A stretch of 64,000 nt of DNA from Rhodanobacteraceae bacterium (GTDB lineage: Bacteria; Pseudomonadota; Gammaproteobacteria; Xanthomonadales; Rhodanobacteraceae): NCBI GenBank assembly GCA_025928585.1, contig JAICJG010000001.1:548-64547 (forward strand), in the 5' to 3' direction. The notes below the pieces were generated by a model. That model had not been told where the DNA came from. It ran no database searches and saw only the letters and a list, made by a program, of their open reading frames with translations. Of the stretch, positions 36,468-53,517 are shown piece after piece. Each line of letters starts with the position of its first letter. The stretch's first letter is position 1. The translations under genes and the position numbers were made by a program.

Positions 36468-37391
36468 ATGGGAACACTCGCGCGGATTTTGGTCGCCGCG
36501 GTATCGGTCGCGAGCAGCGTGACCTGCACGGCGCAGGCACGCTGGCAACCGTGGCATGCGGCGCAGGTTCCGGGCACCAGTCGCAAGGTGGATCCTGCGC
36601 AACTGCCGCCCGGCATCGCGATCCTGCGTGACGTGCGCTATGGCGACGGCGCCGGTGAAACGTTCGACGTCTACGCGCCGCGGGACGCACACGGCGCGCC
36701 GGTGATCTTCATGGTGCACGGCGGCGGATGGCAGCGCGGCGACAAGGCTGCGCGTGGCGTCGTACAGAACAAGGTCGCGCACTGGGTGCCGCGCGGCTTT
36801 GCCGTAGTGTCAGTGGATTATCCGATGCTGCCGGACACGCTGCCGCTGCAGCAGGCGCGCGACGTGGCGTTGGCGCTTGCGGCCGCGCAGCGCGATGCGC
36901 CGCGGTGGGGCGGCGATCCCGACCGCTTCGTGCTGATGGGTCATTCGGCGGGCGCACACCTGGTGTCGTTGATCAGCGTCGAGCCAGTTGTCGCGACATC
37001 GCAGGGCGCGCTGCCGTGGCTCGGCACGGTCGCCCTCGACAGCGCCGCCTACAACATCGCCACGATCATGCAAGCGCCGCACCTTCGCTTGTACGACGAA
37101 GCCTTCGGCGACGATCCGGCCGCATGGGTCGCACTTTCGCCCATCGCGCAATTGCACGCGAAAATCGCGCCGTTCCTGGCCGTGTGCTCGTCGCGGCGAG
37201 CGGACTCATGCAGCCAGGCCGAAGCGTTCACGACGAAGGCGGGCGGGTTCGGTGCGCGGGTAGAAGTGCTCCCCGAGGACATGCGGCACGGTGAAATCAA
37301 TGAAGTGCTGGGCGAGCCGTCTGCGTACACCACCGCGGTGGACCAGTTTCTCGCAAGCCTCGACCCCTCGCTGGCGGTGCGTTTGCGCTGA
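36468..37391 (+). CDS. Secreted alpha/beta hydrolase (esterase/lipase-like)
   Basis: Has a signal peptide (MGTLARILVAAVSVASSVTCTAQA), the oxyanion HGGGW motif and the nucleophile elbow GHSAGAH. Confidence 0.85.
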   Translation: MGTLARILVAAVSVASSVTCTAQARWQPWHAAQVPGTSRKVDPAQLPPGIAILRDVRYGDGAGETFDVYAPRDAHGAPVIFMVHGGGWQRGDKAARGVVQNKVAHWVPRGFAVVSVDYPMLPDTLPLQQARDVALALAAAQRDAPRWGGDPDRFVLMGHSAGAHLVSLISVEPVVATSQGALPWLGTVALDSAAYNIATIMQAPHLRLYDEAFGDDPAAWVALSPIAQLHAKIAPFLAVCSSRRADSCSQAEAFTTKAGGFGARVEVLPEDMRHGEINEVLGEPSAYTTAVDQFLASLDPSLAVRLR

Positions 37392-37493: not shown

Positions 37494-37570
37494 GGCCCCG
37501 TAGCTCAGTTGGATAGAGCGTCCCCCTCCTAAGGGGAAGGTCGCCCGTTCGAATCGGGCCGGGGTCGCCA
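37494..37570 (+). tRNA. tRNA-Arg (anticodon CCT)
   Basis: Cloverleaf folded by hand. The acceptor GGCCCCG pairs with CGGGGTC. The D-arm is TAGCTCAGTTGGATAGAGC, the anticodon arm is CCCCC-TCCTAAG-GGGGA with CCT at positions 34-36, the T-arm is GGTTCGAATCC-like (CGCCCGTTCGAATCGGGC), and the CCA end is encoded. Confidence 0.9.
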
Positions 37571-37674: not shown

Positions 37675-38754
37675 ATGGGGCGACGAATCCTGTTTGGCGT
37701 CTATCACTGGGGTCTTGGCCATGCCACCCGGAGCCTCGGGCTGATCCGCGCGTTGCTGGATCGCGGCGACGAGGTGACGATCCTGATGCAGCCCGGCGGA
37801 GGCATGCAGCTGCTGAAGTCGGAACTCGGTGACGCCTGCGAGTACCTGCCCTTTCAGGACACGCCCGCCCCCTTCAGCCGCTATCCGGTGGTTTTCTACG
37901 TGCGCATGACCGCGGCGATGCCGTGGATCCTGGCGGGTTTCCGGCGCGAGCATCGCTTCACCGAAAAACTGGTTGCGGAGCGACACTTCGACCGCGTGGT
38001 GTCCGACAGCCGCTTCGGCGTGTGGTCGCGCGAAGTGCCGAGCTTTTGCATCCTGCATTCCATCCACCAGCGCGTGCCGTTCTTCAGCCGCTTCACCGAG
38101 TGGTGCGCGGAGCGCGGGCAGCGCGATCTTCTGAAGGGATTCACGAAAATCCTGATCCCGGACGTCGAGGAAAACGGGGGCCTGTCCGGCTGGCTGGGCC
38201 ACGAGCCGAATTTCGACTGGGGCGACGGACGATTGGCCTACATCGGGCCCTTGTCGAGCGTGCCGCGCCTCGACATCGAGCAGGATATCGACGTGTTCTT
38301 CTCGGTTTCCGGCATCGAGCCGCAACGCGGATTGCTGGAGGACCTCGTGCTCGATGCGCTGCCGCGGCTGTCCGGCAAGGTCGTCGTGACGCTCGGCCGG
38401 CCACGGGACGCCGGCGAATGCCGCGAAGTCGCGGGTGCGACCGTATACGACTATCTCGATCGCGAACGCCAGGCCGAAATGCTCAACCGCGCCAAGCTGG
38501 TGATGACCCGATCGGGCTATACCACCCTGATGGAACTCGCAGGTTTGGGCAGGCGGGCGCTGTTCGTCGCGACACCTGGCCAGAGCGAACAGGAATACCT
38601 CGCGCGGTTCCATCGCGAGCGCGGGCACGTGTGGTCGGTGGAGCAGAAGCACATGGACATCCCGCGCGACCTGGAGCGAGCCAAGGCCATGCGCGGCATA
38701 CCGCAAATGGACGCGGGCGCCTCAGTCGGACGATTTCTTGCCGCCATCGCCTGA
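37675..38754 (+). CDS. GT-B fold glycosyltransferase (MurG/GT28-related, MJ1255-like)
   Basis: ATG at 37675 gives MGRRILFGVYHWGLGHATRSLGLIRALLDRGDEV (N-terminal G-rich loop). The C-terminal donor-binding block is AKLVMTRSGYTTLMELAGLGRRALFVATPGQSEQEYLA. Its 3' end overlaps the convergent hpnL-like gene by 33 nt. Confidence 0.7.
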   Translation: MGRRILFGVYHWGLGHATRSLGLIRALLDRGDEVTILMQPGGGMQLLKSELGDACEYLPFQDTPAPFSRYPVVFYVRMTAAMPWILAGFRREHRFTEKLVAERHFDRVVSDSRFGVWSREVPSFCILHSIHQRVPFFSRFTEWCAERGQRDLLKGFTKILIPDVEENGGLSGWLGHEPNFDWGDGRLAYIGPLSSVPRLDIEQDIDVFFSVSGIEPQRGLLEDLVLDALPRLSGKVVVTLGRPRDAGECREVAGATVYDYLDRERQAEMLNRAKLVMTRSGYTTLMELAGLGRRALFVATPGQSEQEYLARFHRERGHVWSVEQKHMDIPRDLERAKAMRGIPQMDAGASVGRFLAAIA

Positions 38755-39726
38755 GTCGTGCTTGCCCCCGGACGGCATTTCGCGCCAGGTCGCGCCGACG
38801 ATAGGCAGCGAAAACATCCAGATGGCGCCGGTCCACACGATCCGGAAGCCGAGCATCATCGCGAGGCCGTCGGTGTAGCCGATGCCGTACGCCTGCGCGA
38901 TCACCATGCCGAGCAGGTCGATGGTGCCGATCTGGCTGACGAGACCCGCGCCGATCAGGATCACCGCGAGCGAGAACGCGTAGATCGTGGCGGCACTCCA
39001 GTAGTCGAGATGCTGCACGTGCATGCCGCGCCCGACCTGCCAGAACGCGATGGTCAGTGCGCCCAGGTATATGGCGGCCAGCACCAGGCTGACGCCGATC
39101 GTGTGCGGCGTGCACAGCTTGCGCAGGCCATCGAGCAATTCGACGCCGCCCTTGGCGATCTTCTTCAGCCATTCCCGGCGCACCCCGCCCGCGAGCTTGC
39201 GGGCCTTGTCCTCGAACACGACCGCGCCCGCCACGAACGCGACGAACAGTACCAGCAGCGCCACCGCCACCCAGCGGACCTCGCCCCAGCCCGGCAGCCC
39301 CATGACCGCCAGGAACAGGAAGACGACCGCGATCTCGACGAGCAGCATCATCACCGTGGCGGCGGCGCTGCGACCGACGTGCACTCGGCGCGAGGCCGAC
39401 ATCACCCAGTTCTGCGAAAACAGCCCGAGCGGCAACGTCACCGTCAGTTCGCCCACCGCGAATGCCAGCCAGAACGGGCGCGGCGAGATGCACACGCCGA
39501 TCCGGTTCAGCATCAGCCTGAGTTGCACCGCCTTGCAGCCGAGGTACACCGCGGCGGCGCCGACCGAAATGCCGATGACGTGGAGCGGCAGGCCGCGCAG
39601 CCGCGCCATCACCTTGCCGAGGTCGCCGAGGTTGAACGCGAACACCAGCAGTGCGGCCGCCAGCAGCACGGGCAGCACCACTCCGGGTTTGAGGACGTGC
39701 CGGATCCTGGACAGGAGTTTCAGCAT
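38722..39726 (-). CDS. hpnL: UPF0104 / lysyl-PG-synthase-TM (flippase-like) membrane protein, HpnL-like
   Basis: ATG at 39726 (MLKLLSRIRHVLKPGVVLPVLLAAALLVFAF). It has about 8 TM helices with the UPF0104 architecture. The start overlaps the upstream acyltransferase stop by 7 nt. Its position in the hpn locus matches TIGRFAM HpnL (recollection, not searched). Confidence 0.65.
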   Translation of the reverse strand: MLKLLSRIRHVLKPGVVLPVLLAAALLVFAFNLGDLGKVMARLRGLPLHVIGISVGAAAVYLGCKAVQLRLMLNRIGVCISPRPFWLAFAVGELTVTLPLGLFSQNWVMSASRRVHVGRSAAATVMMLLVEIAVVFLFLAVMGLPGWGEVRWVAVALLVLFVAFVAGAVVFEDKARKLAGGVRREWLKKIAKGGVELLDGLRKLCTPHTIGVSLVLAAIYLGALTIAFWQVGRGMHVQHLDYWSAATIYAFSLAVILIGAGLVSQIGTIDLLGMVIAQAYGIGYTDGLAMMLGFRIVWTGAIWMFSLPIVGATWREMPSGGKHDSGDGGKKSSD

Positions 39727-41021
39727 GGCGCCAGACGGTCGATGTCGGGCAGGAAGTCCGATAGCGCATTGTCCAGGTAGCGGACGACATTTTCTGGACG
39801 CCGCCACCCTGGCGGCACGTCGCACGGGCAGGTGTTCCGGAACGAGGTGCCTTCGCGGGCCACCAGCCCCTTGCGGTGCAGCCACTGCAATCTGCGGGCG
39901 GTGAGCCGGTCGACCGGTACCCGTTCAAACAGCGGGTCCACGGCCGCGCCGTGCCTGACCAGGCTGGCGTGCGCGTCCGCGAGCCACCGGGTAAGTTCGC
40001 CGGCCGCGAACACGGGCGACCCGTGCAGGAGAAAACGTGCGAGCAGGTAGCTCGGCGTGATCGTTACCAGATCGAGCACCGCTTGCCGCAGCTTCGCATC
40101 GAAATCGCGGCGCTCCACACGGGTGTCGGCGCGAAATGCCTGGCCCGCCCGGATCACCACCCGCGATTTTCCGGGTGCGAGCGTGTCGTAGCCGAGCCCG
40201 ATCGGCTGGATCCAAGGGGGCGACTCGGCCATGCGGGCGACGCGGAAGAACCCGCCGCGAACGCGACCAAAAGGTCCGGTTTCCGAAATCGTGCCTTCCG
40301 GCGAGAAGTAGATGCAGCACCCCCGGTCGAGGCGTCGCGCGAAGTGGGCGATTTGCCGTTCGACCGTGGCGCGAAAGCCCGGCGCGATGGCGGCGCGTGC
40401 CTCGTGGCCAAGCCTGCGCAGCCCCCACCAGCGCTCCAGCGCATCGTCGGAACGTTCGAGCAGCGCATTCACGGAACACGCGCCAGGATGGACGCCGGTT
40501 TCCCGCCGCCCGCGCGGGTTCAGCAGCGAACCCGCGTCCGCAGCGCCGAACCCCTCGGCCGCCAGCATGCACAGCGCTTCGCCGAGGGTGAATTCGCGGA
40601 CCCGCCGCATCGGTTCGGTACGCCCCAGCGGGAAGAACCACGCCAGCGAAATCCGGCGGAGCAGTCCCGAAACGGGGCGCGGCCAGTGCCCCGTGAGCCG
40701 CGCGAGTATTCCCGGGCGAAACAGGTCTTCGCGCGTCGCGTAGAAAGGCAAAGCGCCGAGGAAGCGCAGCCCGCGGCGATCCAGCAGCATGGTCCCCAAT
40801 ATCGGGCCGTCGATGTCCCGCTGGTGGTTGGATGCGACCATCGAGCCCGGCCGCATGCGGAAATCTTGCGGCAGCAGAACCTCACGGCGGTATACCGCGC
40901 TGATGTACAGATCGCCCGCGAACCGGAACAGCCAACTCGCAACCGGGTGGGGGTCGGCATCTTGGGTCGGCCATGTCTCGCGCGTGCGGATGGAGAACGC
41001 TGGCTCTGCGCGACGTTGCAT
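39720..41021 (-). CDS. PlsC-type (lysophospholipid) acyltransferase family protein, unusually long (433 aa)
   Basis: Contains the HX4D catalytic motif in VASNHQRDIDGPILG and a later FSPEGTIS (EGT-type) block. The ATG at 41021 directly abuts the TGA of the upstream GT2 gene (TGAATG). Confidence 0.7.
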   Translation of the reverse strand: MQRRAEPAFSIRTRETWPTQDADPHPVASWLFRFAGDLYISAVYRREVLLPQDFRMRPGSMVASNHQRDIDGPILGTMLLDRRGLRFLGALPFYATREDLFRPGILARLTGHWPRPVSGLLRRISLAWFFPLGRTEPMRRVREFTLGEALCMLAAEGFGAADAGSLLNPRGRRETGVHPGACSVNALLERSDDALERWWGLRRLGHEARAAIAPGFRATVERQIAHFARRLDRGCCIYFSPEGTISETGPFGRVRGGFFRVARMAESPPWIQPIGLGYDTLAPGKSRVVIRAGQAFRADTRVERRDFDAKLRQAVLDLVTITPSYLLARFLLHGSPVFAAGELTRWLADAHASLVRHGAAVDPLFERVPVDRLTARRLQWLHRKGLVAREGTSFRNTCPCDVPPGWRRPENVVRYLDNALSDFLPDIDRLAPC

Positions 41022-42131
41022 TCAACCGGCCCCGCGCTGGTAATGGCGGTCCTTCCACACCGAACGCGTGCCGCCGAGTGCGCGCCACGCGGAGTACCAG
41101 GCCGTGACGAGGAAGAAGGTCGCCGTCGCTGGCAGCAGCACCGCCGCCAGCGGATTGCGCCGGTAGTACACGAGGGTCGGCAGGTAACAGCAGCCCAGCA
41201 CGAGCCACGCGCCTGCGCCGAGCCAGCGGGCCGCGCCGTGACCCGCGGCCACCGCGAGCACCGGAATCCAGAACGCCAGCACCAGCAACGCCGTTGCCGC
41301 GATCAGCAACGCGAGCGATTCGCGCAACTGCACGAATGCCGTGCGCGCGATCATGTGGGCGATCCCACCGGCGTCTGCACGGCGCAGGCTCGTCGCGCCG
41401 CGGGTGAGCCCGATCCAGCAGCGATGGCCGGCCCGCTTGACGTGCGCGGCCAGCGTGCAATCATCGATGATGGCGTCTCGCCACGCGCCAAAGCCGCCGG
41501 CGTCCGCAAGTGCCTGCCGGTCCACCAGGACGACGCCGCCGGCCGCGGCCGCAACCCGCGAACGCATCCGGTTCGCGAGCCGGAACGGATACAGCAGCTT
41601 GAAGAAGTACACGAACGCGGGCATCAGCCAGCGCGCAGCCGCACCCGCCCAGCACGGTTCGGCGCACACCGACACCAGCGCATAACCCTCGTCGGCCTTG
41701 CGTTGCAGGGAGGCGGGCATGCCCCGCGTCAGCCGGATGTCCGCATCGAGCAGCAGCACGCGCGGCGTCGTGACATTCCGAATGCCTTGTTCCAGCGCCC
41801 AGAGCTTGCCGGTCCATCCGGCCGCCGGCGGTGTGCCCCGGATGAGCGTGAGATCGTCGAGGCCGCTGCCGCGGGCAACGGCCGCGGTCTCATCATCGGA
41901 TTGGTCGTCGATCACGATCACCGGTGCGCCTCGCGCGCAGACACGCAGCGCCGCGAGCGTGTCGCCCAGTACCGCCGCTTCGTTGCGCGCGGGGATCAAG
42001 ACCGTGAAGCCGGCTGGCTGCGCATCTTCGGCATCGTCGGCTTCCAGCCTCTCCGTGCAGCGCCATGCCTGCCACGGGAGCAACAGGACCGCCAGCCAGA
42101 GTGCGAGCGAGACGGCGGCGAGGATCAGCAT
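41022..42131 (-). CDS. hpnB: Family-2 glycosyltransferase, hopene-associated HpnB-like
   Basis: ATG at 42131. It has an N-terminal TM, then VLIPARNEAAVLGDTL...VIVIDDQSDDET...LLDADI (GT-A DxD). WTGKLWAL is present, and C-terminal TM helices follow. It lies 28 nt downstream of hpnH. Confidence 0.7.
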   Translation of the reverse strand: MLILAAVSLALWLAVLLLPWQAWRCTERLEADDAEDAQPAGFTVLIPARNEAAVLGDTLAALRVCARGAPVIVIDDQSDDETAAVARGSGLDDLTLIRGTPPAAGWTGKLWALEQGIRNVTTPRVLLLDADIRLTRGMPASLQRKADEGYALVSVCAEPCWAGAAARWLMPAFVYFFKLLYPFRLANRMRSRVAAAAGGVVLVDRQALADAGGFGAWRDAIIDDCTLAAHVKRAGHRCWIGLTRGATSLRRADAGGIAHMIARTAFVQLRESLALLIAATALLVLAFWIPVLAVAAGHGAARWLGAGAWLVLGCCYLPTLVYYRRNPLAAVLLPATATFFLVTAWYSAWRALGGTRSVWKDRHYQRGAG

Positions 42132-42159
42132 GTGGTGCCCGCCCGGCAGCGTCGGCGGG

Positions 42160-43290
42160 TCAGTTCCTGACGCCGCCGAAGTGCGCGATGGGAACGTTGC
42201 TGTGCGGGCTTCGCTGGTTGGGCTCGGGGGTGTCGTAGAGGATCGGCGGGTCGGCCGCGAACGCGCCCGTGAGCTTCGGCCCGCGGACGCTGGCCCAGAA
42301 GGCTTTGAGCGGATGCCGGAACGAATCGTCGGCCGCGGTGCCTTCGAAGCCGCAATGCGCCATGCAGTTCGCGCATTTTGGATTGCGCCCGACCCCGTAA
42401 TTTTCCCAATCGGTCTTCTCGATGAGGTCCGTGAAGGTGGGTACGTAGCCTTCGTCGACCAGCAGGTAGCACGGCTTCTGCCAGCCGAACACGTTGCGGC
42501 ACGGCATGCTCCACGCGGTGCACTGGTAGCCCTGGTTGCCGCACACGAAATCGAGGAAGAGGCTGGACTGCGACAGCGCCCATTTGCTGCGCTTTTCCTT
42601 CCTGCGCCGGAAGATCTGGCGCATCAGTTCCTTGGACTGGCGACGACCCATGAACACGTCCTGGCGCGGTGCGTGCTCGTAGGCGAAGCCCGGAGAGAAG
42701 GTGATGCCGTCGACCCCGAGATCATAGGTCGCGAAATCGAAGAATTCGGCGACTTCCTCGGGCTTGGCGGTGGTGAACAGGGTGGTGTTGATGTTGACCC
42801 GGAATCCGCGGCGCTTGGCTTCGCGGATCGCGGCCACCGCCGTGTCGAACACACCCTCGCGACCGACGCTTTCATCGTGCCGTTCGCGCATCCCGTCGAG
42901 GTGTACCGAGAACGTCAGGTGGTCGGATGGCGTGAACAGGTCGAGTTTCTTCTCGAGCAGGATCGCGTTGGTGCACAGATAGATGTACTTGCCGCGCGCG
43001 AGGAAGCCGTCGACGATCTCCTTGATGTCCTTGTGGACGAGTGGCTCGCCACCGGCGAGCGACACCATTGGCGCGCCGCATTCGTCCACTGCGTGCATGC
43101 ATTCCTCGACCGAAAGGCGCTCTTTCAGGATGTGCGAGTCGTAATCGATCTTGCCGCATCCGGGGCAGGCGAGATTGCACTGGAACAACGGCTCCAACAT
43201 CAGCGTCAGCGGATAACGTTTCACGCCGCGCAGCTTTTGGCCGATGATGTAGCTCGCGACCTTGACTTGTTGACGGATGGGGATGGACAT
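42160..43290 (-). CDS. hpnH: Adenosyl-hopene transferase, radical SAM (HpnH)
   Basis: ATG at 43290 (MSIPIRQQVKVASYIIGQKLRGVKRYPLTLMLEPLFQCNLACPGCGKI, with the CxxxCxxC cluster). Contains SLAGGEPL and LCTNAILL. The C-terminal Cys-rich CANCMAHCGFE follows the HpnH pattern. Confidence 0.88.
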   Translation of the reverse strand: MSIPIRQQVKVASYIIGQKLRGVKRYPLTLMLEPLFQCNLACPGCGKIDYDSHILKERLSVEECMHAVDECGAPMVSLAGGEPLVHKDIKEIVDGFLARGKYIYLCTNAILLEKKLDLFTPSDHLTFSVHLDGMRERHDESVGREGVFDTAVAAIREAKRRGFRVNINTTLFTTAKPEEVAEFFDFATYDLGVDGITFSPGFAYEHAPRQDVFMGRRQSKELMRQIFRRRKEKRSKWALSQSSLFLDFVCGNQGYQCTAWSMPCRNVFGWQKPCYLLVDEGYVPTFTDLIEKTDWENYGVGRNPKCANCMAHCGFEGTAADDSFRHPLKAFWASVRGPKLTGAFAADPPILYDTPEPNQRSPHSNVPIAHFGGVRN

Positions 43291-43448
43291 TCGTTGACTC
43301 CTCTGGCGCGGAGGCGCCCGGGGTGTGACCGGCGGGCGGTTGCAGTCGGTGGGGCTGGTCCCGATAGTGGACCCGCATGTGTCAAGGTGGCGTTGACGCG
43401 ACCCTCCCGCATCGCGGGCGAGCGCGGAATGCAGCAAAAAAACTTGCC

Positions 43449-43660
43449 GCGGATCGACCCGGGCCGACACAGCTGGAGCGAAAAGCAATTTGACGCGGAT
43501 AAAGCGGATGAACGCGGATCGAAGCAGAAGCATCAACGCGAATTGCGCGGATGAACATGGATGAAGCTCCCCGATTGGTTGCTTGACCCCCCCCTCTATC
43601 CGCGCTCCTCCGCTTCGGGAATTTCCTTTGCCCGATCCGTGTTGGTCGGTATATATCCGT
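43449..43660. promoter_or_regulatory. Array of GCGGAT hexamers (5 copies, 43449-43552) mirrored by ATCCG(C/T) (3 copies, 43598-43660) in the 420-bp gap between the idi and hpnH operons
   Basis: Counted directly. GCGGAT occurs at 43449, 43495, 43504, 43514 and 43547. ATCCGC occurs at 43598 and ATCCGT at 43635 and 43655. Two CAAAAAAACTT boxes lie at about 43435 and 43663. The region is visibly less GC-rich than its surroundings. Confidence 0.4.
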
Positions 43661-43710
43661 GTCAAAAAAACTTCCTTTGCTCTTTCGCGGCCCTCCGCAC
43701 GAGGTTCGTA

Positions 43711-44308
43711 TCAGTCCGTGGCAAGGGAATGCTTTTCGGGCAGGCGGGGCGTACCCTCGGGCAACCGGTCCGCGAACTCGCCGCGCAGCCGCTGCCATTC
43801 CAGTTTCAGCCACGGGGTGAAGCGTTCGGGCGTTTCGGCGATCTCGCGGTCGAGCGCTTCCGGCATCACGTAGCGCCATGCCGCAATCTCGGTCGCGTTG
43901 ACGTGCACCGGCGCGTCGGATGTGCCGACGTACACCCAGCACAGTTCCGTCTCGGAGCCGGCGTCCCCGTACTCCGCGTGGTACTGGAACTTGTAGACGA
44001 ATTCGAGCGGGCAGGTGAAACCGAGCTCCTCGCGCAGGCGGCGCCGGGTGGCGGCGACCATGTCCTCGCCGCCGCGCGGATGGCTGCAGCAGCTGTTGGC
44101 CCAATAGCCGGGCCATAGCGGCTTGCCCGTCGCGCGCTGCTGGAGCAGGAGTGCGCCCGCCGAATTGAACACGAACAGAGAGAACGCGCGATGCAGGATG
44201 CCTTTGCCCGCGTGCGCGTCGGCCTTGTTGGCGTGGCCGATCTCGCGGTCGGCGGCATCCACCAGGATCAGCCGCTCGGAATCGAACGACACCACGCGAT
44301 CATCGTGC

Positions 44309-44316
<8 letters not shown>
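43711..44316 (-). CDS. idi: Isopentenyl-diphosphate delta-isomerase, type 1 (Nudix)
   Basis: Contains HRAFSLFVFNSAGALLLQQRATGKPLWPGYWANSCCSHP.GGE...RRRLREELG, with the catalytic Cys and Glu blocks. The TTG start at 44316 overlaps the upstream stop by 8 nt, and later in-frame GTG starts are possible. Confidence 0.88.
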
Positions 44317-46567
<2,251 letters not shown>

Positions 46568-46584
46568 GCTGGTTCCTTGCAGCT

Positions 46585-47607
46585 TCAATCGGCGACGATG
46601 GTTTCCAGACCCCGCGGGTCCGCACCCAGGTCGATCGTGGTGAATCCGGCCTCGGTGGCGCGTTTCGTGAATTCCCGCAACCGCATATCATCCATGGCGA
46701 ACGTGACGCCCACGTCACCACCGCCCGCGCCGCAGCTCTTGTAGACGGCGTCGCACTCCGCCGCCAGTGCAGCCAGGAGGCGGTGCCCGCGGCTCGCGAT
46801 GTCCACTCCGCCGGCCTCGCCGAAGCGCGCCAACGCTTGCGCATAATCGTCGAGGCTGGACAGGAAGGATGCGGCATCGTGACCCACAACGGCGTCGACA
46901 CCGCGTGAAGATATTGTAGCGAGTTCGCCCATGCGGGCGGCATGCCCGGACGGGTCGCGTTCATGCCATGCCGCCACCGCGCCGAGCATCTCCTCGGTCG
47001 AAGCCGGCCGGCCGCTGAACACGCAGCACCAGCGCAAGCCACGGGGGAGTTGCAGCGGCACGCATTCCGGCGTGCCTCCCGGGAGTTGGAAGCGCGACAG
47101 TCCGCCGGCCAGCGCGGCGGCGGTGTCGATGCCGCTGCCGCGCCCGTGCTGGATCGCGCGGTGCACGGAGATGCATTCCGCGAGCGTCGGCGCGGGTCGT
47201 CCCGCGCAGGCGTGCAGCGCGCCGAGCAGGGCGACCGTGAGCGCGGCGCTGGAACCCAGGCCGAGCTTTACCCGCTCGCCGGGGCGTTCGAGGAAGAACG
47301 CGTCGCTGTCGAGCTCGACGCGGCACGGGAGCAGCGCGGCCGCGAACGGCAATTGCGCGAACAGCGAGGCGAGCCATGACAGTTCGCGGGCGGGCGTGCC
47401 GCACCAGTCGACCCCGCCGGGCCCGACGCGCAGGCGCGCGTGGAGCCCAAGGGTGGGCGACGCGATCTCCCATGCGTTTCCGTGCATTGGATCCAGCGTA
47501 ACCCTGGCCCGCCGGTCGACCGCGATCACCAGCGCGGGCGCACCTTCCAGTACCGCGTATTCGCCGAGCAGCACCAGCTTGCCGGGTGCGCTTGCGGTGA
47601 TGCGCAT
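46585..47607 (-). CDS. mvaK2: Phosphomevalonate kinase (GHMP family)
   Basis: ATG at 47607 (MRITASAPGKLVLLGEYAVLEGAPALV). The GHMP motif is GLGSSAALTVALLGAL, and KSCGAGGGD is C-terminal. It sits between the MVD and HMGR::MVK genes. Confidence 0.8.
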   Translation of the reverse strand: MRITASAPGKLVLLGEYAVLEGAPALVIAVDRRARVTLDPMHGNAWEIASPTLGLHARLRVGPGGVDWCGTPARELSWLASLFAQLPFAAALLPCRVELDSDAFFLERPGERVKLGLGSSAALTVALLGALHACAGRPAPTLAECISVHRAIQHGRGSGIDTAAALAGGLSRFQLPGGTPECVPLQLPRGLRWCCVFSGRPASTEEMLGAVAAWHERDPSGHAARMGELATISSRGVDAVVGHDAASFLSSLDDYAQALARFGEAGGVDIASRGHRLLAALAAECDAVYKSCGAGGGDVGVTFAMDDMRLREFTKRATEAGFTTIDLGADPRGLETIVAD

Positions 47608-48638
47608 CAGGCCGGGTTCCCGCTGGCGACCTCGAGTTCGGAATCCGCGACGATCCGCGCACCCTCTCCGAGCCCGCTCAGGATCACGTCTTGCACACCC
47701 GCCACGTCGCGCAGGACATCGGCAACCTGCGCTGCGGCATCGGGCAGGCACACGGCCTTCACTTGCGGGCCGGCGTCGATCGTGAAAAACACGCCGAGGC
47801 CGTCCCGTTCGCGCAGGCTGCGCACGCGCTGCATGCATTCGACAGTTGCCCCGTTCCAGTAGATCAGGCCCGGGCGGGTGGACAGCATTACCGCATGCAT
47901 GGCGAGGCAACTCGCCTCCCCGACTGCGGCCAGCCGGTCGAAGTCGCGGCTGCGGACGGCGCCCCGCGCCACCTCGAGATCGCCTGCGCCGGTGGTGATC
48001 CAGTCGCGGTAGAACGGTGACGTGCGCCGCGAGAGATCCATGCCGGTGCGCGAGCTGGTGGACTTCGCGGTCCGCGTGGTGATCGCGATCACCACGCGCA
48101 GCGGCCACGCCGCGGCATCGAGCAGCGGCCTGGCAAACGCATCTTCGCCATCGGCGCGCGTGCCGGCGGCCATTTCGGCGAAGCCGCCGAAGATCGAACG
48201 TGCGGCCGAGCCCGAGCCGCGCCGCGCGAGTCGCGAGAGCGACGACGCATCCAGATCGGTTCCGAGCGCGCGGTCGGCCGCGACCGCGAGTGCCGCAAAA
48301 CCGGACGCGGAGGAGGCGAGTCCGGCTCCGGTCGGAAAATCGTTCTCGCTGACGACACAGGCACGGGTGGCGACGCCCGCGTGCGCGCGCAGCAGGTCGA
48401 GAAACGCGGAAATCTTGCGTGACTCGGCTGCGTCGCGGCGCCCGTTCAGCACGATGTCGTCCGCACCGAGCGCCGGATCGAAGCGGACGGCGGTGCGCGT
48501 ATGCAATCGGTCGAGGGTGATCGACAGCGAACCCGAGGCCGGCAGGTTCAACGCATCGTCGCGTTTCCCCCAGTATTTCACCAGCGCGATGTTGGGATGC
48601 GCGAGGGCGGAGGCCCGCCCAGGTGGCGATGTGATCAA
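47607..48638 (-). CDS. mvaD: Diphosphomevalonate decarboxylase
   Basis: Contains AHPNIALVKYWGKRD, LPASGSLSITLD, PTGAGLASSASGFAALA, RRGSGSAARS and FTIDAGP. A TTG at 48638 preceded by AGGAA is the preferred start (alternative GTG at 48653). Its stop overlaps the PMK start by 1 nt. Confidence 0.88.
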   Translation of the reverse strand: MITSPPGRASALAHPNIALVKYWGKRDDALNLPASGSLSITLDRLHTRTAVRFDPALGADDIVLNGRRDAAESRKISAFLDLLRAHAGVATRACVVSENDFPTGAGLASSASGFAALAVAADRALGTDLDASSLSRLARRGSGSAARSIFGGFAEMAAGTRADGEDAFARPLLDAAAWPLRVVIAITTRTAKSTSSRTGMDLSRRTSPFYRDWITTGAGDLEVARGAVRSRDFDRLAAVGEASCLAMHAVMLSTRPGLIYWNGATVECMQRVRSLRERDGLGVFFTIDAGPQVKAVCLPDAAAQVADVLRDVAGVQDVILSGLGEGARIVADSELEVASGNPA

Positions 48639-48727
48639 CGGTGGTTCCTGCACGTGGTGGTCATGGTGCCGGTGGATGGTTCGCCGGGTCCGCGCGGGCA
48701 TCGACCCGCAACGGCGGTCCGAACCGC

Positions 48728-49735
48728 TCAAGCGGGGCGCCGCCGCGAGAAGTATCCCTGGTCGCGGAACCATTGTATTGCGTCGGCAAGCGCTTCCCGG
48801 GCGGGACGCGCGCGGTAGCCGAGTTCGGTCTCGGCGCGGCGGCTGGTGAAATACATCTTGTGGCGCGCGAGCTTGACGCCGTCCACGGTGATGGTGGGCG
48901 CACGGTCGCTGATCCGCGCCCACGCCTCGGCGGCGTGCGCGATCGGCAGGAGCGCACGATGCGGCAGGCGGATCTTGGGCCCGGCACGGCCGCTAAGTTC
49001 CGCGACGGTAGAGAGGATCTCGCGCAGGCTCATGTTCTCGCCGCCGAGAATGTAACGGCGCCCGCGCTCGCCGTGCCGGTACGCAAGCACGTGGCCCTCG
49101 GCGACGTCGTCGACGTGCACGATGTTGAGCCCGGTATCGACGTAGGCCGGCATCTTGCCGCGCGCCGCGTCGAGCACCATCTGCCCGGTGGGCGTGGGCT
49201 TGCGGTCGCGCGGGCCGACCGGTGCGGAGGGATTCACGATCACGATGTCCTGTCCCGCGCGCGCGCGCCGCCGCGCCGTTTTCTCGGACAGGTATTTCGA
49301 GCGCTTGTACTCGCCGATCATGTCGGCATAACTCGCGGGCGTTTCCTCGTCGGAAGGCGTGCCGTCCTCGTGCAGCCCGAGCGTGGCGACGCTCGAGGTG
49401 TGCACGATGCGCGCGACGCCGGCGCTTCTCGCGGCGGCCAGGATGTTGCGCGTTCCGCGCACGTTGGTCATGCGGATCTCTTCGGGATTACGCGCCCACA
49501 AGCGGTAATCCGCGGCGACGTGGAACAGCCCCTCGCACCCGTCCAGCGCAGCGCGCAGCGTGGGCGGATCGAGCAGGTCGCCGCGCACGATCTCGACGTC
49601 CGCGCCCTCGAGGGTGGTGGTGTCGCTGGTCGGGCGCGCGAGCGCGCGCACCTCGAAACCGTGGCGCAACAGCGCAAGGCACACCGCTGATCCCACGAAT
49701 CCGTTGCCGCCACTGACGAGAACGCGCGTGCTCAT
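48728..49735 (-). CDS. hpnA: Hopanoid-associated NAD-dependent sugar epimerase/dehydratase (HpnA)
   Basis: ATG at 49735 (MSTRVLVSGGNGFVGSAVCLALLRHGFEV, Rossmann GxxGxxG). It has Y-x3-K (YKRSK) and lies between hpnG and the MVA genes. Confidence 0.8.
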   Translation of the reverse strand: MSTRVLVSGGNGFVGSAVCLALLRHGFEVRALARPTSDTTTLEGADVEIVRGDLLDPPTLRAALDGCEGLFHVAADYRLWARNPEEIRMTNVRGTRNILAAARSAGVARIVHTSSVATLGLHEDGTPSDEETPASYADMIGEYKRSKYLSEKTARRRARAGQDIVIVNPSAPVGPRDRKPTPTGQMVLDAARGKMPAYVDTGLNIVHVDDVAEGHVLAYRHGERGRRYILGGENMSLREILSTVAELSGRAGPKIRLPHRALLPIAHAAEAWARISDRAPTITVDGVKLARHKMYFTSRRAETELGYRARPAREALADAIQWFRDQGYFSRRRPA

Positions 49736-50460
49736 GCAGCGACGCATGCCCGCGTGGCGAGGCGCGCGGCCGACGTCAGCGCGCGCCGCGCCTGCGAGAA
49801 GTCCTGCGCAAGCGAACGCACCGCGTTCCAGACGGGCGGGCCGCCGAACGCGATCGTGGACAGCATCCGCCAGGACGGTCCGCCACTGCCGCCGTCGAGC
49901 GCGCGCAGGACCCGCTGCGGCAGCTCGCGGCCGAGCGGGTCGCAGATCGCCTTCACCGCCACGAACGGCAGCCCGGCACGCGCCGCGACGGCCGCGATCG
50001 ATGCAGCTTCCATGTCCACGGCGATGGCGCCGGAACGTTCGGCGAGCGCGCGCTTGTCGGCCTCGTTGGCGAGCGGTTCGGCTGCCGACCACAAGGCGCC
50101 TTCGCGCACCCTCAGCGAGCCGGAACACGCCGCAATGATCCGCTCCCGGGCGCTCGCATCGGTGGCGAAACCGGGGTCGTCGGGAGCGTGCCGGATGCGA
50201 TCGGGCACCACGAGGTCGCCGGGCGCGAGGCTGCCGTCCAGCGCCCCCGCCACGCCCCAGTTCGCGATCCGGTCGATGCCGCACTCGAGCAGCCGTTCCG
50301 CGGCACGCAGCGCGTTGTGCGGTCCGATGCCCGACACGGCGATCCAGCCGTACTGCCAGCGCGCGCATCCGCCCGGCCGCACGCCCCGGACGCCTACGCT
50401 GCGGGCCTCCGCGGGCAGCGCGACGATCAGTCCGTTGCGGTCAGTCCGTTCGCTGGACAT
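49732..50460 (-). CDS. hpnG: Hopanoid-associated nucleoside phosphorylase/nucleosidase (HpnG)
   Basis: It is PNP_UDP_1-like. Contains GLIVALPAEAR, VSGIGPHNA, NWGVAGAL and AVDMEAASIA. There is an ATGA overlap with hpnA, and its start overlaps the shc stop by 20 nt. Confidence 0.8.
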   Translation of the reverse strand: MSSERTDRNGLIVALPAEARSVGVRGVRPGGCARWQYGWIAVSGIGPHNALRAAERLLECGIDRIANWGVAGALDGSLAPGDLVVPDRIRHAPDDPGFATDASARERIIAACSGSLRVREGALWSAAEPLANEADKRALAERSGAIAVDMEAASIAAVAARAGLPFVAVKAICDPLGRELPQRVLRALDGGSGGPSWRMLSTIAFGGPPVWNAVRSLAQDFSQARRALTSAARLATRACVAA

Positions 50461-52375
50461 TGCGGTATCGCACCAGCGCCCAGTACGGGAAGTAGCGGCT
50501 GTAACCGTGGTACTTGAGGTAGAACACCCGCGGAAAACCGGGTGCGTTGAAGCGCGTGTCGTGCCATTCGCCGTCGACCTGCGTCTTCAGCAGGTACTCG
50601 ATCCCGCGCGCGACCGCCGGGCTGCCCGCTTCGCCGGTTCGCATCAGCGCAAGCAAGGCCCACGCGGTCTGGGTCGGGCCACTGCGCGCGCCGCGCCCGC
50701 GCAGACTCGGGTCGAGGTAACTGTCGTTGCCTTCGCCCCAGCCGCCATCGGCCTGCTGCACCGACTTCAGCCATTCCGCAGCGCGCCGGATCGGGGGTGC
50801 ATGCACTTCGAGGCCGGCGGCCCGCAGCGCCACCACCACGGACCAGGTCCCGTAGATGTAATTGGTGCCCCAGCGCCCGAACCATGCGCCTTCGGGAGAC
50901 TGTTCGTCGAGCAGGAAACGCAGCACCCGTTCGCGGCTGTCGCGGTCCCGTGGCCGCCGCAGCAGCGACAACAGCAGCAACACCCGCCCGCTGACGTCGC
51001 TGGTCGGGGGATCGAGCAGGGCCCCATGGTCCGCGAACGGAATCTGGTTCAGCCACTGATGGTCGTTGTCGGCATCGAACGCGGCGAAGCCGCCGTCGCG
51101 TGACTGCATTCCGGTCAGCCAATCGCACGCCCGGCCGATCGCCTTCGAGAACGCAGCGCGGTCCGGCGACTGGTACATCGCCCGCGCCACCACCGCGGTG
51201 TCGTCGAGGTCGGGGTAGGCGTCGTTGCGGAACTGGAACGCCCAGCCGCCGCCGGGAAGCGTGCGGCGGTAGGTCCGCCAGTCGCCGGGAGCATCGAAGA
51301 GCTGGCGCGCCGCGAGCCAGTCGAGCGCACGGCGGATCGCCTGTTGCGGGGCGCCCGGGTCTTCCTGCATCGCGAGGCAGGTGAGGCCGGTATCCCACAC
51401 CGGCGAGACGCACGGCTGGCACCAGGCTTCCTGGTCGTGGATCACCAGGAGGTCGTCGATGGCCTTGCGGGTTTCGCGGCGCGCGGGATGCTCGGCCGGA
51501 TAGCCGAGCAGCGCCAGCGCCTCGTAGGCGTTGACCATCGCCGGGAAAATCGCGCCCAGCCCGCCGTCACCATTGCGACGCTCCAGGATCCAGGCTTCCG
51601 CGCGCCGCAGCGCGCGACGGCGCAGCCGGCGCGGGATCAGTGCTTCGCCGCTGCGGAGCGTCTTCTCGCAGGCGAACAGCAACCGGTTCAGCAGCGAACG
51701 CGGACGGAAATAGTGCTTTTCTTGCTCGGGCGGGGTGACGAACAATTCGCGGATGTCTACGCCGCGCGGGTTCGCCGCGCGCGGCTTCAGCGAAGTCAGT
51801 ACCGAAAGCGGCACCATGACCGTGCGCGACCAGTACGAGACCTTCATCAGGTTGAACGGAAACCAGCGCGGCAACAGCACGATTTCGACCGGCAGGAACG
51901 GCACCCCGCGCCAGGGCAACTCGCCGAACAATGCGAGTGCGATGCGCGTGAACACGTTGCTGCAGGCGGCGCCGCCTTCGGCGAGGATCGCCGAGCGTGC
52001 GCGCAACATGTGCGGCGCGTCGGGACGGTCACCGGCGAGCTTCAGGGCAAAATAGCACTTGACGCTGCAGCTCACGTCCATCGCACCGCCGGGATAGAGC
52101 GGCCAGCCGCCGTCGCGCGACTGGTGGTCGCGCAGGTACGCGGCCAGGCGAGATTCGAGCAGCCGGTCCGATTCGCCGAGGTAGTGCAGCATCAGGATGT
52201 ATTCGGCCGGGATGGTGCAGTCGGCTTCCAGTTCGTACTGCCAGTACCCGTCGGGGTGCTGCTTCGCGAGAAGGCGCGCACGGGCGGCCTCGATCCCGGC
52301 GTCCAGGCGGTCGCGCGACCGGTGGCTGCCGCGGGTTGCGGGGCGTGAATGCGGCAGGCCTGAATCCGGTGCCAT
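50441..52375 (-). CDS. shc: Squalene-hopene cyclase
   Basis: ATG at 52375. It has multiple QW repeats (QHPDGYWQYE, QSRDGGWPLY, RRNGDGGLGA, MQSRDGGFAAF, QSPEGAWFGRWG, VQQADGGWGE). The catalytic DxDD is in YPDLDDTAVV. The N-terminal 330 aa of track ORF 50441..53365 are rejected. Confidence 0.95.
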   Translation of the reverse strand: MAPDSGLPHSRPATRGSHRSRDRLDAGIEAARARLLAKQHPDGYWQYELEADCTIPAEYILMLHYLGESDRLLESRLAAYLRDHQSRDGGWPLYPGGAMDVSCSVKCYFALKLAGDRPDAPHMLRARSAILAEGGAACSNVFTRIALALFGELPWRGVPFLPVEIVLLPRWFPFNLMKVSYWSRTVMVPLSVLTSLKPRAANPRGVDIRELFVTPPEQEKHYFRPRSLLNRLLFACEKTLRSGEALIPRRLRRRALRRAEAWILERRNGDGGLGAIFPAMVNAYEALALLGYPAEHPARRETRKAIDDLLVIHDQEAWCQPCVSPVWDTGLTCLAMQEDPGAPQQAIRRALDWLAARQLFDAPGDWRTYRRTLPGGGWAFQFRNDAYPDLDDTAVVARAMYQSPDRAAFSKAIGRACDWLTGMQSRDGGFAAFDADNDHQWLNQIPFADHGALLDPPTSDVSGRVLLLLSLLRRPRDRDSRERVLRFLLDEQSPEGAWFGRWGTNYIYGTWSVVVALRAAGLEVHAPPIRRAAEWLKSVQQADGGWGEGNDSYLDPSLRGRGARSGPTQTAWALLALMRTGEAGSPAVARGIEYLLKTQVDGEWHDTRFNAPGFPRVFYLKYHGYSRYFPYWALVRYRNVQRTD

Positions 52376-52377
52376 GG

Positions 52378-53517
52378 CTATTTCGAGGTAGCGGCTTGGG
52401 CGGGGCCGCAGGCATCGCTGCGCGGCCATGCCGAGTGCGGAGCAGGCAGCAGGCCGCCCCAGTCGTCGGCCAGGGCCTGCAGCGGCAGGCCGTCCGCGAG
52501 CCGCGCGAACCAGCCCCGCAGCACGCGGCTGTAACCCGCGAACAGGTGCGTCACGATCACTACCTTCTTGACGACCTGGCGCGAGACCTTCACCTGCACG
52601 CCGGCCGTGAAATCGGGTTTGGCGAGGATCGAGCCGAGCGTGCGCATCGCGAGCCCCACCGCGATCAGGCAGAAGCGCCGGATTCCGACTTCCTTTTCCG
52701 GGATCAGCAGCGTGTAGTTCAGGGCGTTGCGCAAATGGCTGTGGGCGATGCCGATCAGTTGCGCATAGGCGTGCCCGAAGGCGGCCGGAACGCTGCCGCG
52801 CCTGATCGTCTGCAGGTCGACCCCGGCGCGGGCGAACAGGTCGCGCGGCAGCCAGCACACGCCGCGGTCGCGGTCTTCCCAGAAGTCCTTGAGGATGTTG
52901 GTCATCTGCAGGCCCTGGCCGAACGAGACGTCCAGCTCGGACATCGCTTCGCGCTGCTCCGCGATTCGGGGCGAGTATTCGCAGAACAACTCGGTGAGCG
53001 TCTGCCCGACGATGCCGGCGACGTAGTAGCAGTAGCGATCCATCTCGCGCATGTCGGCGAGGCCCGCGGTGCTGGCCTCGCGCTCGAAGCTCGGCATTCC
53101 GGTGCACATCGTGCGGATGCAGCGCGCCAGTGCTTCGCGCTGGGGCAGGTTGAAGCTGTCGGTGATCTCGATGATTTGCGGCGCGTGCTCGACCAAATCG
53201 CGTTCGGCGGGAAGGGTGCTGCCGTTCAACAGCGGTGCCAGGTCGCGCGCGAACGACGCGGGGTCCTCGGTCGAGCCGACCACCCGCGTGAAGCGGTCGT
53301 GGAACTGCTGCTTGACATCTGCCGGCAGGGATTGTTCGTCCTCGATGGTGTCCGCGATCCTGCACAACAGGTACGCGTTCGCGATCACCGTGCGCAGGCG
53401 CGCGTCGAGTTGCGGGATCGTCAATGCGAAGGTGCGCGAAACCGCGGGCAGGATCCGGTCCTGGTAGGCCCGGGCGGCGCGAGGCGGCGCGTGTGCGGCG
53501 GCGACATGGATTGTCAT
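52378..53517 (-). CDS. sqs: Squalene synthase (single-enzyme farnesyl-diphosphate farnesyltransferase type; squalene/phytoene synthase family)
   Basis: Contains SRTFALTIPQL, YLLCRIADTIEDE (Asp-rich 1), MDRYCYYVAGIVG, GQGLQMTNILKDFWEDRDRG (Asp-rich 2 region) and a hydrophobic C-terminal tail. Its stop is 2 nt before the shc start. Confidence 0.85.
   Translation of the reverse strand: MTIHVAAAHAPPRAARAYQDRILPAVSRTFALTIPQLDARLRTVIANAYLLCRIADTIEDEQSLPADVKQQFHDRFTRVVGSTEDPASFARDLAPLLNGSTLPAERDLVEHAPQIIEITDSFNLPQREALARCIRTMCTGMPSFEREASTAGLADMREMDRYCYYVAGIVGQTLTELFCEYSPRIAEQREAMSELDVSFGQGLQMTNILKDFWEDRDRGVCWLPRDLFARAGVDLQTIRRGSVPAAFGHAYAQLIGIAHSHLRNALNYTLLIPEKEVGIRRFCLIAVGLAMRTLGSILAKPDFTAGVQVKVSRQVVKKVVIVTHLFAGYSRVLRGWFARLADGLPLQALADDWGGLLPAPHSAWPRSDACGPAQAATSK

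Follow-up and report, generated by a model that had tools for sequence, protein, structure and literature searches.

Our main finding is that three adjacent genes, encoding an acyltransferase (AT), a membrane protein of the UPF0104 family, and a GT-B glycosyltransferase, form a conserved unit. The genes are in a 64,000 nucleotide stretch of DNA, hereafter the window, from a Rhodanobacteraceae bacterium (GenBank assembly GCA_025928585.1, contig JAICJG010000001.1, positions 548 to 64,547 of the forward strand). Here, they mark the distal end of a 17-kb cluster of hopanoid and mevalonate genes. An earlier, sequence-only reading of the same DNA had drawn the unit as a glycosyltransferase family 2 (GT2) protein, AT, and the UPF0104 protein. 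We find that GT-B is the invariant partner and that GT2 is dispensable. We refer to AT, UPF0104, and GT-B as the trio and, by analogy with gpgSDF and MprF, lean towards the view that it is a make-modify-flip cassette producing an acylated glycosyl hopanoid. The trio genes, and the two genes preceding them on the minus strand, are listed below.

37675-38754, plus strand: GT-B glycosyltransferase, 359 amino acids (Pfam and NCBIfam matches, profile comparison with the PDB, synteny)
38722-39726, minus strand: UPF0104 membrane protein, 334 amino acids (PF03706)
39720-41021, minus strand: AT, 433 amino acids (PF01553, AF2 model, Foldseek, motif conservation)
41022-42131, minus strand: HpnB-like GT2, 369 amino acids with three hydrophobic segments (best family TIGR03469)
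42160-43290, minus strand: hpnH, radical-SAM adenosylhopane synthase, 376 amino acids (TIGR03470, 520.7 bits, cutoff 225)

The trio is a conserved unit

We surveyed 60 loci from species-representative genomes, and 11 more recovered by exact protein look-up, by mapping 14 proteins of the window onto each with tblastn. Note that the genome scan used one peptide pattern, around the HX4D motif of AT, and that distant members, possibly including cultured carriers, may be missed. AT, UPF0104, and GT-B were found together in 50 of the 51 loci with at least 2.3 kb of DNA downstream of AT. The sole exception (L065) is an outlier with 27% identity. Otherwise, the trio is kept down to identities of ~30% for AT, 36-40% for UPF0104, and ~50% for GT-B. 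It was found in metagenome-assembled genomes (MAGs) of Rhodanobacteraceae, Nevskiaceae, Casimicrobiaceae, Salinisphaeraceae, Ectothiorhodospiraceae, Acidihalobacter, Thiohalorhabdus, and Gemmatimonadota. At the Gemmatimonadota locus L060, all three genes run in the same direction, as one operon whose junctions overlap. No other recurrent neighbour family emerged from an all-against-all comparison of neighbouring open reading frames (ORFs). We conclude that the conserved unit is AT, UPF0104, and GT-B, not GT2-AT-UPF0104.

In the window, hpnH is the first gene of a minus strand run, hpnH-GT2-AT-UPF0104. Judged by ORF coordinates, 28 nucleotides separate hpnH from the GT2 gene. The GT2 and AT genes meet at TGAATG (junction sequence GGTTGAATGCAA). 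The stop of AT and the start of UPF0104 then share seven nucleotides (ATGCTGA; junction sequence CCATGCTGA). Finally, the UPF0104 and GT-B genes are convergent and their 3' ends overlap by 33 nucleotides (38722-38754); no terminator-like site was seen between these ends. All four junctions are as the sequence-only reading described them. The same is true for the positions of the five genes, with an operon on the minus strand, and family matches agree except for the HpnL label. Because the G+C content of the window is 64-71%, raw ORF lists are noisy; real genes were picked using third-position G+C and homology. All five genes have full-length homologs in dozens of other contigs and, hence, are real genes rather than chance ORFs. 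The UPF0104/GT-B overlap, of 33-36 nucleotides, also occurs in L001, L003, L064, L066, and L069, despite AT identity of only ~30%.

GT2 is a variable neighbour

Along its full length, GT2 matches the HpnB model TIGR03469 with 310 bits, below the cutoff of 379.25. Orthologs in L058 and L038 score 386 and 366 bits respectively. For comparison, a genuine HpnB from Mycetohabitans pBRH01, where it is part of an hpnH-hpnA-hpnB cluster, reaches 545 bits and shares 40% identity with GT2 of the window (E 8e-60). The second-best NCBIfam match of GT2 is CruG. We read GT2 as a divergent HpnB.

In most loci, hpnH and GT2 occur as a pair, and they adjoin in most Rhodanobacteraceae. At other loci the arrangement changes. 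Thus, GT2 is encoded downstream of GT-B in L038 and L058, is missing from between hpnH and AT in L044 and L050, and is not in the cluster at all in L045, L047, L052, L057, L061, L063, L066, and L071. On this sequence evidence, GT2 is a variable neighbour, the ordinary HpnB of hopanoid clusters, rather than an obligatory member of the cassette.

The UPF0104 protein is not HpnL

The UPF0104 protein scores 36 bits against PF03706, over residues 16-297, and the margin above the cutoff of 33.4 is thin. It is predicted to be polytopic, with at least seven hydrophobic segments. The sequence-only reading had labelled this protein HpnL. That label did not survive. No NCBIfam model was matched by the UPF0104 protein at E<=10, and this includes both the HpnL model, TIGR03476, and the flippase-like domain TIGR00374. 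As a positive control, genuine HpnL of Mycetohabitans pBRH01 scored 329.8 bits against TIGR03476 (cutoff 195.65). Furthermore, hhalign comparison of the UPF0104 family profile with pBRH01 HpnL returned a probability of 0.1. We therefore rejected HpnL as an identity for the protein. Keeping the two apart avoids wrong annotation transfer. Of the family labels given by the sequence-only reading, HpnB-like is kept for GT2, which we read as a divergent HpnB, and UPF0104 is kept on the strength of PF03706, but HpnL is not. The order hpnH-GT2-AT-UPF0104 is found in most close relatives.

The UPF0104 protein is co-distributed with AT. A profile made from the UPF0104 alignment gave 195 matches; all are in the family and none is named HpnL. 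The same profile had no match among solved structures, and the bifunctional MprF model had no match to the protein. Lipid translocation by a PF03706 domain has been shown only for MprF and is still a prediction for GpgF (PMC12713373).

As a separate observation, HpnL of Mycetohabitans rhizoxinica pBRH01 (L067 50-6586) adjoins a 2-aminoethylphosphonate pathway, comprising aepX, aepY, an aminotransferase, and a cytidylyltransferase, ~8 kb from hpnH. This HpnL may handle a phosphonate-bearing lipid.

These data bear on a four-gene model, which the sequence-only reading put forward. According to this, HpnB-like GT2, AT, 'HpnL', and GT-B are one obligatory unit, and AT reveals what HpnB and HpnL do. 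The tight packing of hpnH-GT2-AT-UPF0104, in the window and most close relatives, would suit such a unit, as would the 40% identity that makes GT2 a true HpnB homolog. However, UPF0104 fails the HpnL model and has no profile similarity to genuine HpnL. In addition, the trio persists at the ten loci, named above (L044, L045, L047, L050, L052, L057, L061, L063, L066, and L071), where GT2 is absent or not adjacent. Conversely, canonical hpnH-hpnA-hpnB clusters that also encode HpnL, as in Mycetohabitans pBRH01, have neither AT nor GT-B. We consider the four-gene model quite improbable. The accompanying statement, that HpnB and HpnL have no demonstrated function, remains accurate in work from 2025-26 (PMC12583986; bioRxiv 10.1101/2025.07.29.667474).

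AT founds a rare acyltransferase family

AT matches PF01553 with 32.2 bits (cutoff 23), and the match spans only the part containing motifs III and IV. All four motifs (I-IV) of lysophospholipid acyltransferases (LPLATs) are present. Motif I is NHQRDID, at residues 65-71, with HX4D at 66-71. Hence, the HX4D motif is intact, as the sequence-only reading had it, and both H66 and D71 are invariant in 44 homologs. The other positions invariant across these 44 aligned members are D69, R97-E98-D99, P241-E242-G243, S246, G249, P273, and D279. Motif III, PEGTIS, occupies residues 241-246, ~170 residues after motif I. This spacing is a property of the family: HX4D is near residue 60 and PEG near residues 235-245, leaving ~100 extra residues between motifs I and III. 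The family version of motif III is PEG[TAV][IV]S, and the arginine of the canonical EGTR is absent in 44 of 44 sequences. In PlsB and PlsC, the motif III arginine contacts the phosphate of the acceptor. The absence of this phosphate-binding residue would be in keeping with a non-phosphorylated acceptor for AT.

No acyltransferase family in NCBIfam was matched by AT; for instance, its score against the PlsC model, TIGR00530, was 13.3 bits where the cutoff is 103. With the motif III arginine also absent from all 44 sequences, we rejected AT as PlsC proper. Comparison of an AT profile with the sequences of solved structures gave chance matches only. An AF2 model was more informative. While an initial model, made from 23 close homologs, was poor (pLDDT 68.8), an alignment of 44 sequences that included distant members gave a pLDDT of 88.8 and a pTM of 0.85. 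Searches with this model using Foldseek found human GPAT1 (8e4y; E 1e-6, probability 1.0, TM 0.52) and Thermotoga maritima PlsC (5kym; probability 1.0, target-normalised TM 0.50). The C-terminal ~130 residues weakly resemble winged-helix domains in the same search. No transmembrane segment is predicted in AT.

An exhaustive phmmer search of 1.84 billion cluster representatives recovered 199 relatives of AT at E<=1e-3 and 34 at E<=1e-30. Most are 410-450 amino acids long, with alignments over the full length. Rhodanobacteraceae are the main source. Others are Nevskiaceae, Casimicrobiaceae, Salinisphaeraceae, Ectothiorhodospiraceae, Acidihalobacter, Thiohalorhabdus, Chromatiales, Gemmatimonadota, and Acidobacteriota, with the most distant members in Armatimonadota and Dehalococcoidales. 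Such rarity, failure against the PlsC model, and the fixed partnership with UPF0104 and GT-B together rule out a housekeeping PlsC paralog. The sequence-only reading had named a housekeeping PlsC or LpxL paralog as an outcome that would undo its case; the rare family described here is neither. We conclude, with its modelled structure as the guide to fold, that AT founds a rare and previously unnamed LPLAT/GPAT-like family with a GPAT1-like predicted fold.

Two further features of AT were noted. First, in Rhodanobacteraceae, the protein almost always ends Pro-Cys (39720-39725 in the window). The final Cys is invariant in 23 sequences and distant clades differ. Second, tblastn splits AT of L054 (uncultured proteobacterium contig_8135) into two matches, 56% and 54% identical, that are located between GT2 and UPF0104, a pattern that points to a frameshift, an assembly break, or a duplication in this MAG.

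GT-B is the most conserved member of the trio

Across loci, GT-B is 50-83% identical, more than either of its partners. Two Pfam families are matched: PF04101 (Glyco_tran_28_C; 29.1 bits, cutoff 22) and PF13528 (28.3 bits, cutoff 25). The C-terminal nucleotide-sugar domain, and an N-terminal loop rich in glycine and containing histidine, place the protein in the GT28/GT1 superfamily, as far as sequence motifs can tell. The GT28 family also includes the monogalactosyldiacylglycerol (MGDG) synthases. Invariant features are WGLGHAxR, SDSR, and RSGYTTLMELA...GQSEQxYLA. His16 and Asp111 are also invariant, alongside the GT28-type nucleotide-sugar motif, and we take these two residues to resemble the catalytic dyad of GT1 enzymes. 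No transmembrane segment is predicted in GT-B, consistent with a soluble protein.

The sequence-only reading called GT-B 'MurG-like', and this is apt. The GT28/GT1 families are matched and, by profile comparison, the best solved relative is Escherichia coli MurG (1f0k; E 0.003), although the similarity covers only the C-terminal nucleotide-sugar motif. With the single GT-B sequence as the query, no solved structure was matched. MurG itself was rejected as an identity because GT-B scores 27 bits against the equivalog model TIGR01133, which has a cutoff of 250.

The likeness to MurG raises a further possibility, namely that the substrate of the trio is linked to polyprenyl phosphate, or is another envelope glycoconjugate, and is unrelated to hopanoids and glycerolipids. 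MurG-like chemistry would then be combined with O-acylation and flipping. Fusion of UPF0104 to dolichol-phosphate-type glycosyltransferases, in archaeal AglD-like proteins, is in keeping with this. Against it are the low equivalog score and the lack of polysaccharide, peptidoglycan, or O-antigen genes recurring beside the trio. In addition, we know of no LPLAT-fold enzyme that acts as a glycan O-acyltransferase. We judge a polyprenyl-linked substrate to be very unlikely.

The trio is linked to hopanoid genes

Among the 34 loci flanked on each side by 5 kb or more, 30 contain one or more of shc, hpnG, hpnH, hpnA, and the squalene synthase gene. In the window itself, shc, hpnG, hpnA, and squalene synthase are all encoded upstream on the same strand; the sequence-only reading was correct that the genes are embedded in a hopanoid cluster. 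The hopanoid-linked loci have about nine arrangements, and the couplings differ by lineage. The window has hpnH-GT2-AT-UPF0104, AT follows hpnA in L058, and GT-B overlaps hpnA in L066. In L061, the trio faces shc-hpnG-hpnH-hpnA. The order in L071 is AT-dxs-polyprenyl synthase (ispA)-hpnH-hpnG-hpnA-shc-DUF116-UPF0104, followed by convergent GT-B. Here, the trio brackets the whole operon since AT is on one side, with UPF0104 and GT-B on the other.

Neither AT nor GT-B had a tblastn match in 72,556 plasmids and chromids, of which 32 carry hpnH. The records with hpnH, identified by tblastn with HpnH, are from Burkholderia, Cupriavidus, Caballeronia, Azospirillum, Mycetohabitans, Streptomyces, and others. 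Hence, the trio is not in the canonical hpn set, in agreement with what the sequence-only reading had stated for the acyltransferase.

Proposed mechanism and alternatives

What we observed are the genes and their families, the fold of AT, and a trio that is both invariant and repeatedly linked to hopanoid genes; from these we infer an acceptor, donors, an order of steps, flipping, and a product. First, at the cytoplasmic face of the inner membrane, soluble GT-B would use a nucleotide sugar to glycosylate one hydroxyl of an extended hopanoid. The most likely acceptor is bacteriohopanetetrol, made via HpnH and HpnG; the sequence-only reading had proposed a ribosyl- or tetrol-hopanoid. Second, AT, as a peripheral enzyme with a GPAT1/PlsC fold, would add a fatty acyl group from acyl carrier protein (acyl-ACP) or coenzyme A (acyl-CoA). 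The target would be the sugar or a free hydroxyl of the side chain. Third, the finished lipid would be carried to the outer leaflet by the translationally coupled UPF0104 protein, a role that this domain has in MprF. That AT and GT-B have no transmembrane segment, while UPF0104 is polytopic, adds to the plausibility of this scheme. The make-modify-flip logic of the sequence-only reading is retained as the best reading, by analogy with gpgSDF and MprF, but with AT, UPF0104, and GT-B as the unit.

Several observations weigh against a hopanoid product. Five loci (L037, L060, L064, L069, and L070) have the trio but no hopanoid gene within ~8-10 kb. Among eight distant trio loci, with ~30% identity, hopanoid linkage holds for four and is lacking in the other four. 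The count of 30 positive loci overstates their independence, since many of them are closely related and inherited a single layout. All named members of the AT family are from MAGs. The nearest characterised relatives, GPAT1 and PlsC on the one hand and MurG on the other, act on glycerolipids or polyprenyl lipids rather than triterpenoids. Finally, flippase activity of a stand-alone UPF0104 protein is a prediction even for GpgF (PMC12713373).

Some of these points are shared by the main rival of the hopanoid reading, in which the lipid is a glycerolipid. Here, GT-B would make a glycosyl-diacylglycerol or glycosyl-phosphatidylglycerol, AT would acylate the head group, and UPF0104 would flip the product. 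Proximity to hopanoid genes would then reflect co-regulation of envelope functions. The closest characterised relatives of AT (GPAT1 and PlsC) and GT-B (MurG) do use glycerolipids or lipid I, and glycerolipids are also the substrates of every known UPF0104 cassette (gpgSDF, hexSDF, and MprF). The five trio loci lacking a hopanoid gene within ~10 kb are also as expected. However, the trio is interleaved with hopanoid genes, by tight or overlapping junctions, in many arrangements, and brackets the operon in L071. Moreover, no glycerolipid gene recurs nearby. The missing motif III arginine argues against a glycerol-phosphate-type acceptor, but not against the sugar of a head group. Overall, we regard a glycerolipid product as unlikely, though it is the likeliest of the rivals.

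A variant of the hopanoid reading is that the product is a hybrid lipid. If so, AT would acylate one side chain hydroxyl of bacteriohopanetetrol, GT-B would glycosylate another, and UPF0104 would export the product. The result would be a hopanoid analog of monoglycosyl-diacylglycerol, with the polyol chain in place of glycerol. In Hypericibacter terrae, mono- and diacyl esters of bacteriohopanetetrol account for 80% of hopanoids, and their synthesis has not been assigned to any gene (PMC12583986). Were the hybrid lipid made, the trio would include the first genes for acyl-bacteriohopanetetrols, dominant in that organism, and provide the first function for a hopanoid-linked UPF0104 protein. We think this particular product unlikely.

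The wider cluster and its neighbours

The remainder of the 17-kb cluster, and a divergent gene beyond it, are listed below. Assignments are from NCBIfam and Pfam, and inner boundaries between the genes of 43711-53517 are approximate.

43711-44316, minus strand: IDI/NUDIX isopentenyl diphosphate (IPP) isomerase
44309-46588, minus strand: 3-hydroxy-3-methylglutaryl-CoA (HMG-CoA) reductase-mevalonate kinase fusion, 759 amino acids
~46585-47610, minus strand: phosphomevalonate kinase-like
~47607-48620, minus strand: diphosphomevalonate decarboxylase
~48728-49726, minus strand: hpnA
49732-50460, minus strand: hpnG
~50441-52420, minus strand: shc
52378-53517, minus strand: squalene synthase, single SQS_PSY-type, 379 amino acids
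53679-54563, plus strand: polyprenyl (farnesyl diphosphate (FPP)-type) synthase, divergent

The called genes of L001 and L003 have the same order as 43711-53517 of the window. A complete mevalonate pathway (43711-48923, minus strand) is located inside a gammaproteobacterial hopanoid cluster, between hpnA and hpnH. The most conserved gene of the cluster is that for the HMG-CoA reductase-mevalonate kinase fusion, with 87-96% identity where AT has 54-77%. Note also that a one-gene squalene synthase is found beside shc, instead of the three-gene hpnCDE route. We found none of hpnN, hpnI, hpnJ, hpnK, hpnO, hpnP, or hpnR in the window.

Between the NUDIX gene and hpnH is a non-coding gap of 420 nucleotides (43291-43710), compared with ~150 nucleotides in L001 and L003. 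The gap has no stop codon in the hpnH frame, and a ribosome-binding site, AGAGGAG, precedes hpnH. Neither an Rfam match nor a promoter-like consensus match was found in the gap. More broadly, promoter and terminator scans gave matches at the level of shuffled sequence, and the Rfam scan detected only a tRNA. An ORF of 244 amino acids (43382-44116, minus strand) that overlaps the NUDIX gene and matches no family was discarded as a shadow ORF.

The outer edge of the cluster, 104 nucleotides upstream of the GT-B start, has the following feature.

37494-37570, plus strand: tRNA-Arg(CCT) (Rfam tRNA, 65 bits; ARAGORN)

The tRNA also adjoins GT-B in L001 and L008, with differing orientation, and is absent from this position in L003, L011, and more distant loci. 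Just beyond it, at 36468-37391 on the plus strand, is a gene for an alpha/beta-hydrolase esterase/lipase. The protein is hormone-sensitive-lipase-like and has an N-terminal hydrophobic segment. It recurs beside GT-B in L001, L012, L018, L034, and L054, but not in other loci. The esterase/lipase could be a deacylase for the product of the trio, or a simple neighbour.

Comparison with known systems

In geochemistry, the diversity of hopanoid side chains serves as a biomarker; it also shapes the properties of the bacterial envelope. Many composite hopanoids, including fatty-acyl esters and several glycosides, have no known biosynthetic gene (PMC12583986). The trio is a concrete candidate for genes that acylate or glycosylate hopanoids. 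Our literature search on acylated glycoside hopanoids returned plant chemistry only, and neither a PlsC-type acyltransferase nor a GT28 family is listed near shc in the supplements of a microsynteny preprint. In the literature searched, three things have not been described and are new here: the AT family, the constancy with which AT is accompanied by a MurG-like GT-B and a UPF0104 protein other than HpnL, and the recurrence of hopanoid genes around them. The cassette logic, of a glycosyltransferase, a modifier, and a UPF0104 protein, is already known.

In the case of gpgSDF, from Pseudomonas aeruginosa, a GT-B synthase, a deacetylase, and a predicted UPF0104 flippase yield glucosaminyl-phosphatidylglycerol (GlcN-PG), and hexSDF of Clostridioides difficile is similar (PMC12713373). 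The likeness to the trio is close. All are three-gene systems, with a soluble GT-B synthase, a head-group modifier, and a stand-alone UPF0104 protein; gpgSDF and hexSDF make a modified glycolipid head group at the cytoplasmic face, as the trio would in our proposal. As in gpgSDF and hexSDF, the three proteins are encoded together and inherited as a unit (50 of 51 loci). The differences concern the parts and the substrate. The modifier is an LPLAT-fold acyltransferase in the trio but a deacetylase in gpgSDF and hexSDF. Their glycosyltransferase is of the GT4 family, while that of the trio is GT28/GT1-like and convergently encoded. Because the genomic context of the trio is a hopanoid cluster, its acceptor is probably a triterpenoid, rather than phosphatidylglycerol (PG) or diacylglycerol (DAG).

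The flippase domain of MprF is a UPF0104 domain, and fusions of UPF0104 to GT-A or GT-B domains are common (bioRxiv 10.1101/2022.03.11.483950). In MprF, each PF03706 domain is paired with one enzyme, which esterifies a hydroxyl of a lipid head group. The trio has a similar pairing, with AT as the predicted esterifying enzyme; in the window, the coupling is translational, through the overlap of seven nucleotides. However, the parts of MprF are fused, and its enzyme is a tRNA-dependent aminoacyl transferase (DUF2156). The trio proteins are separate and the fold is HX4D. The AT protein shares the HX4D dyad, motifs II-IV, and overall fold of GPAT1/PlsB and PlsC. It differs by the ~100 extra residues between motifs I and III, the lack of a motif III arginine, and the winged-helix-like C-terminal domain.

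Two terpenoid systems also invite comparison. HpnI-HpnK-HpnJ with HpnL, the glucosamine/cyclitol ether branch from bacteriohopanetetrol, similarly combines hopanoid-linked glycosylation, tailoring, and a protein of the UPF0104 superfamily. There, the glycosyltransferase is a GT2 enzyme (HpnI), and tailoring is by deacetylation and ring contraction. The trio has GT-B, predicted acylation, and a UPF0104 protein that is not HpnL. In the pathways for carotenoid glycoside esters (CrtQ/CrtO for staphyloxanthin, and CruC/CruD), the products of genes within a terpenoid cluster first glycosylate a terpenoid and then attach a fatty acyl group to the sugar. These pathways differ from the trio in using other enzyme families, in having no UPF0104 partner, and in their carotenoid acceptor. 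The trio would extend the logic of glycosyltransferase, modifier, and UPF0104 protein from glycerolipids to a probable triterpenoid substrate.

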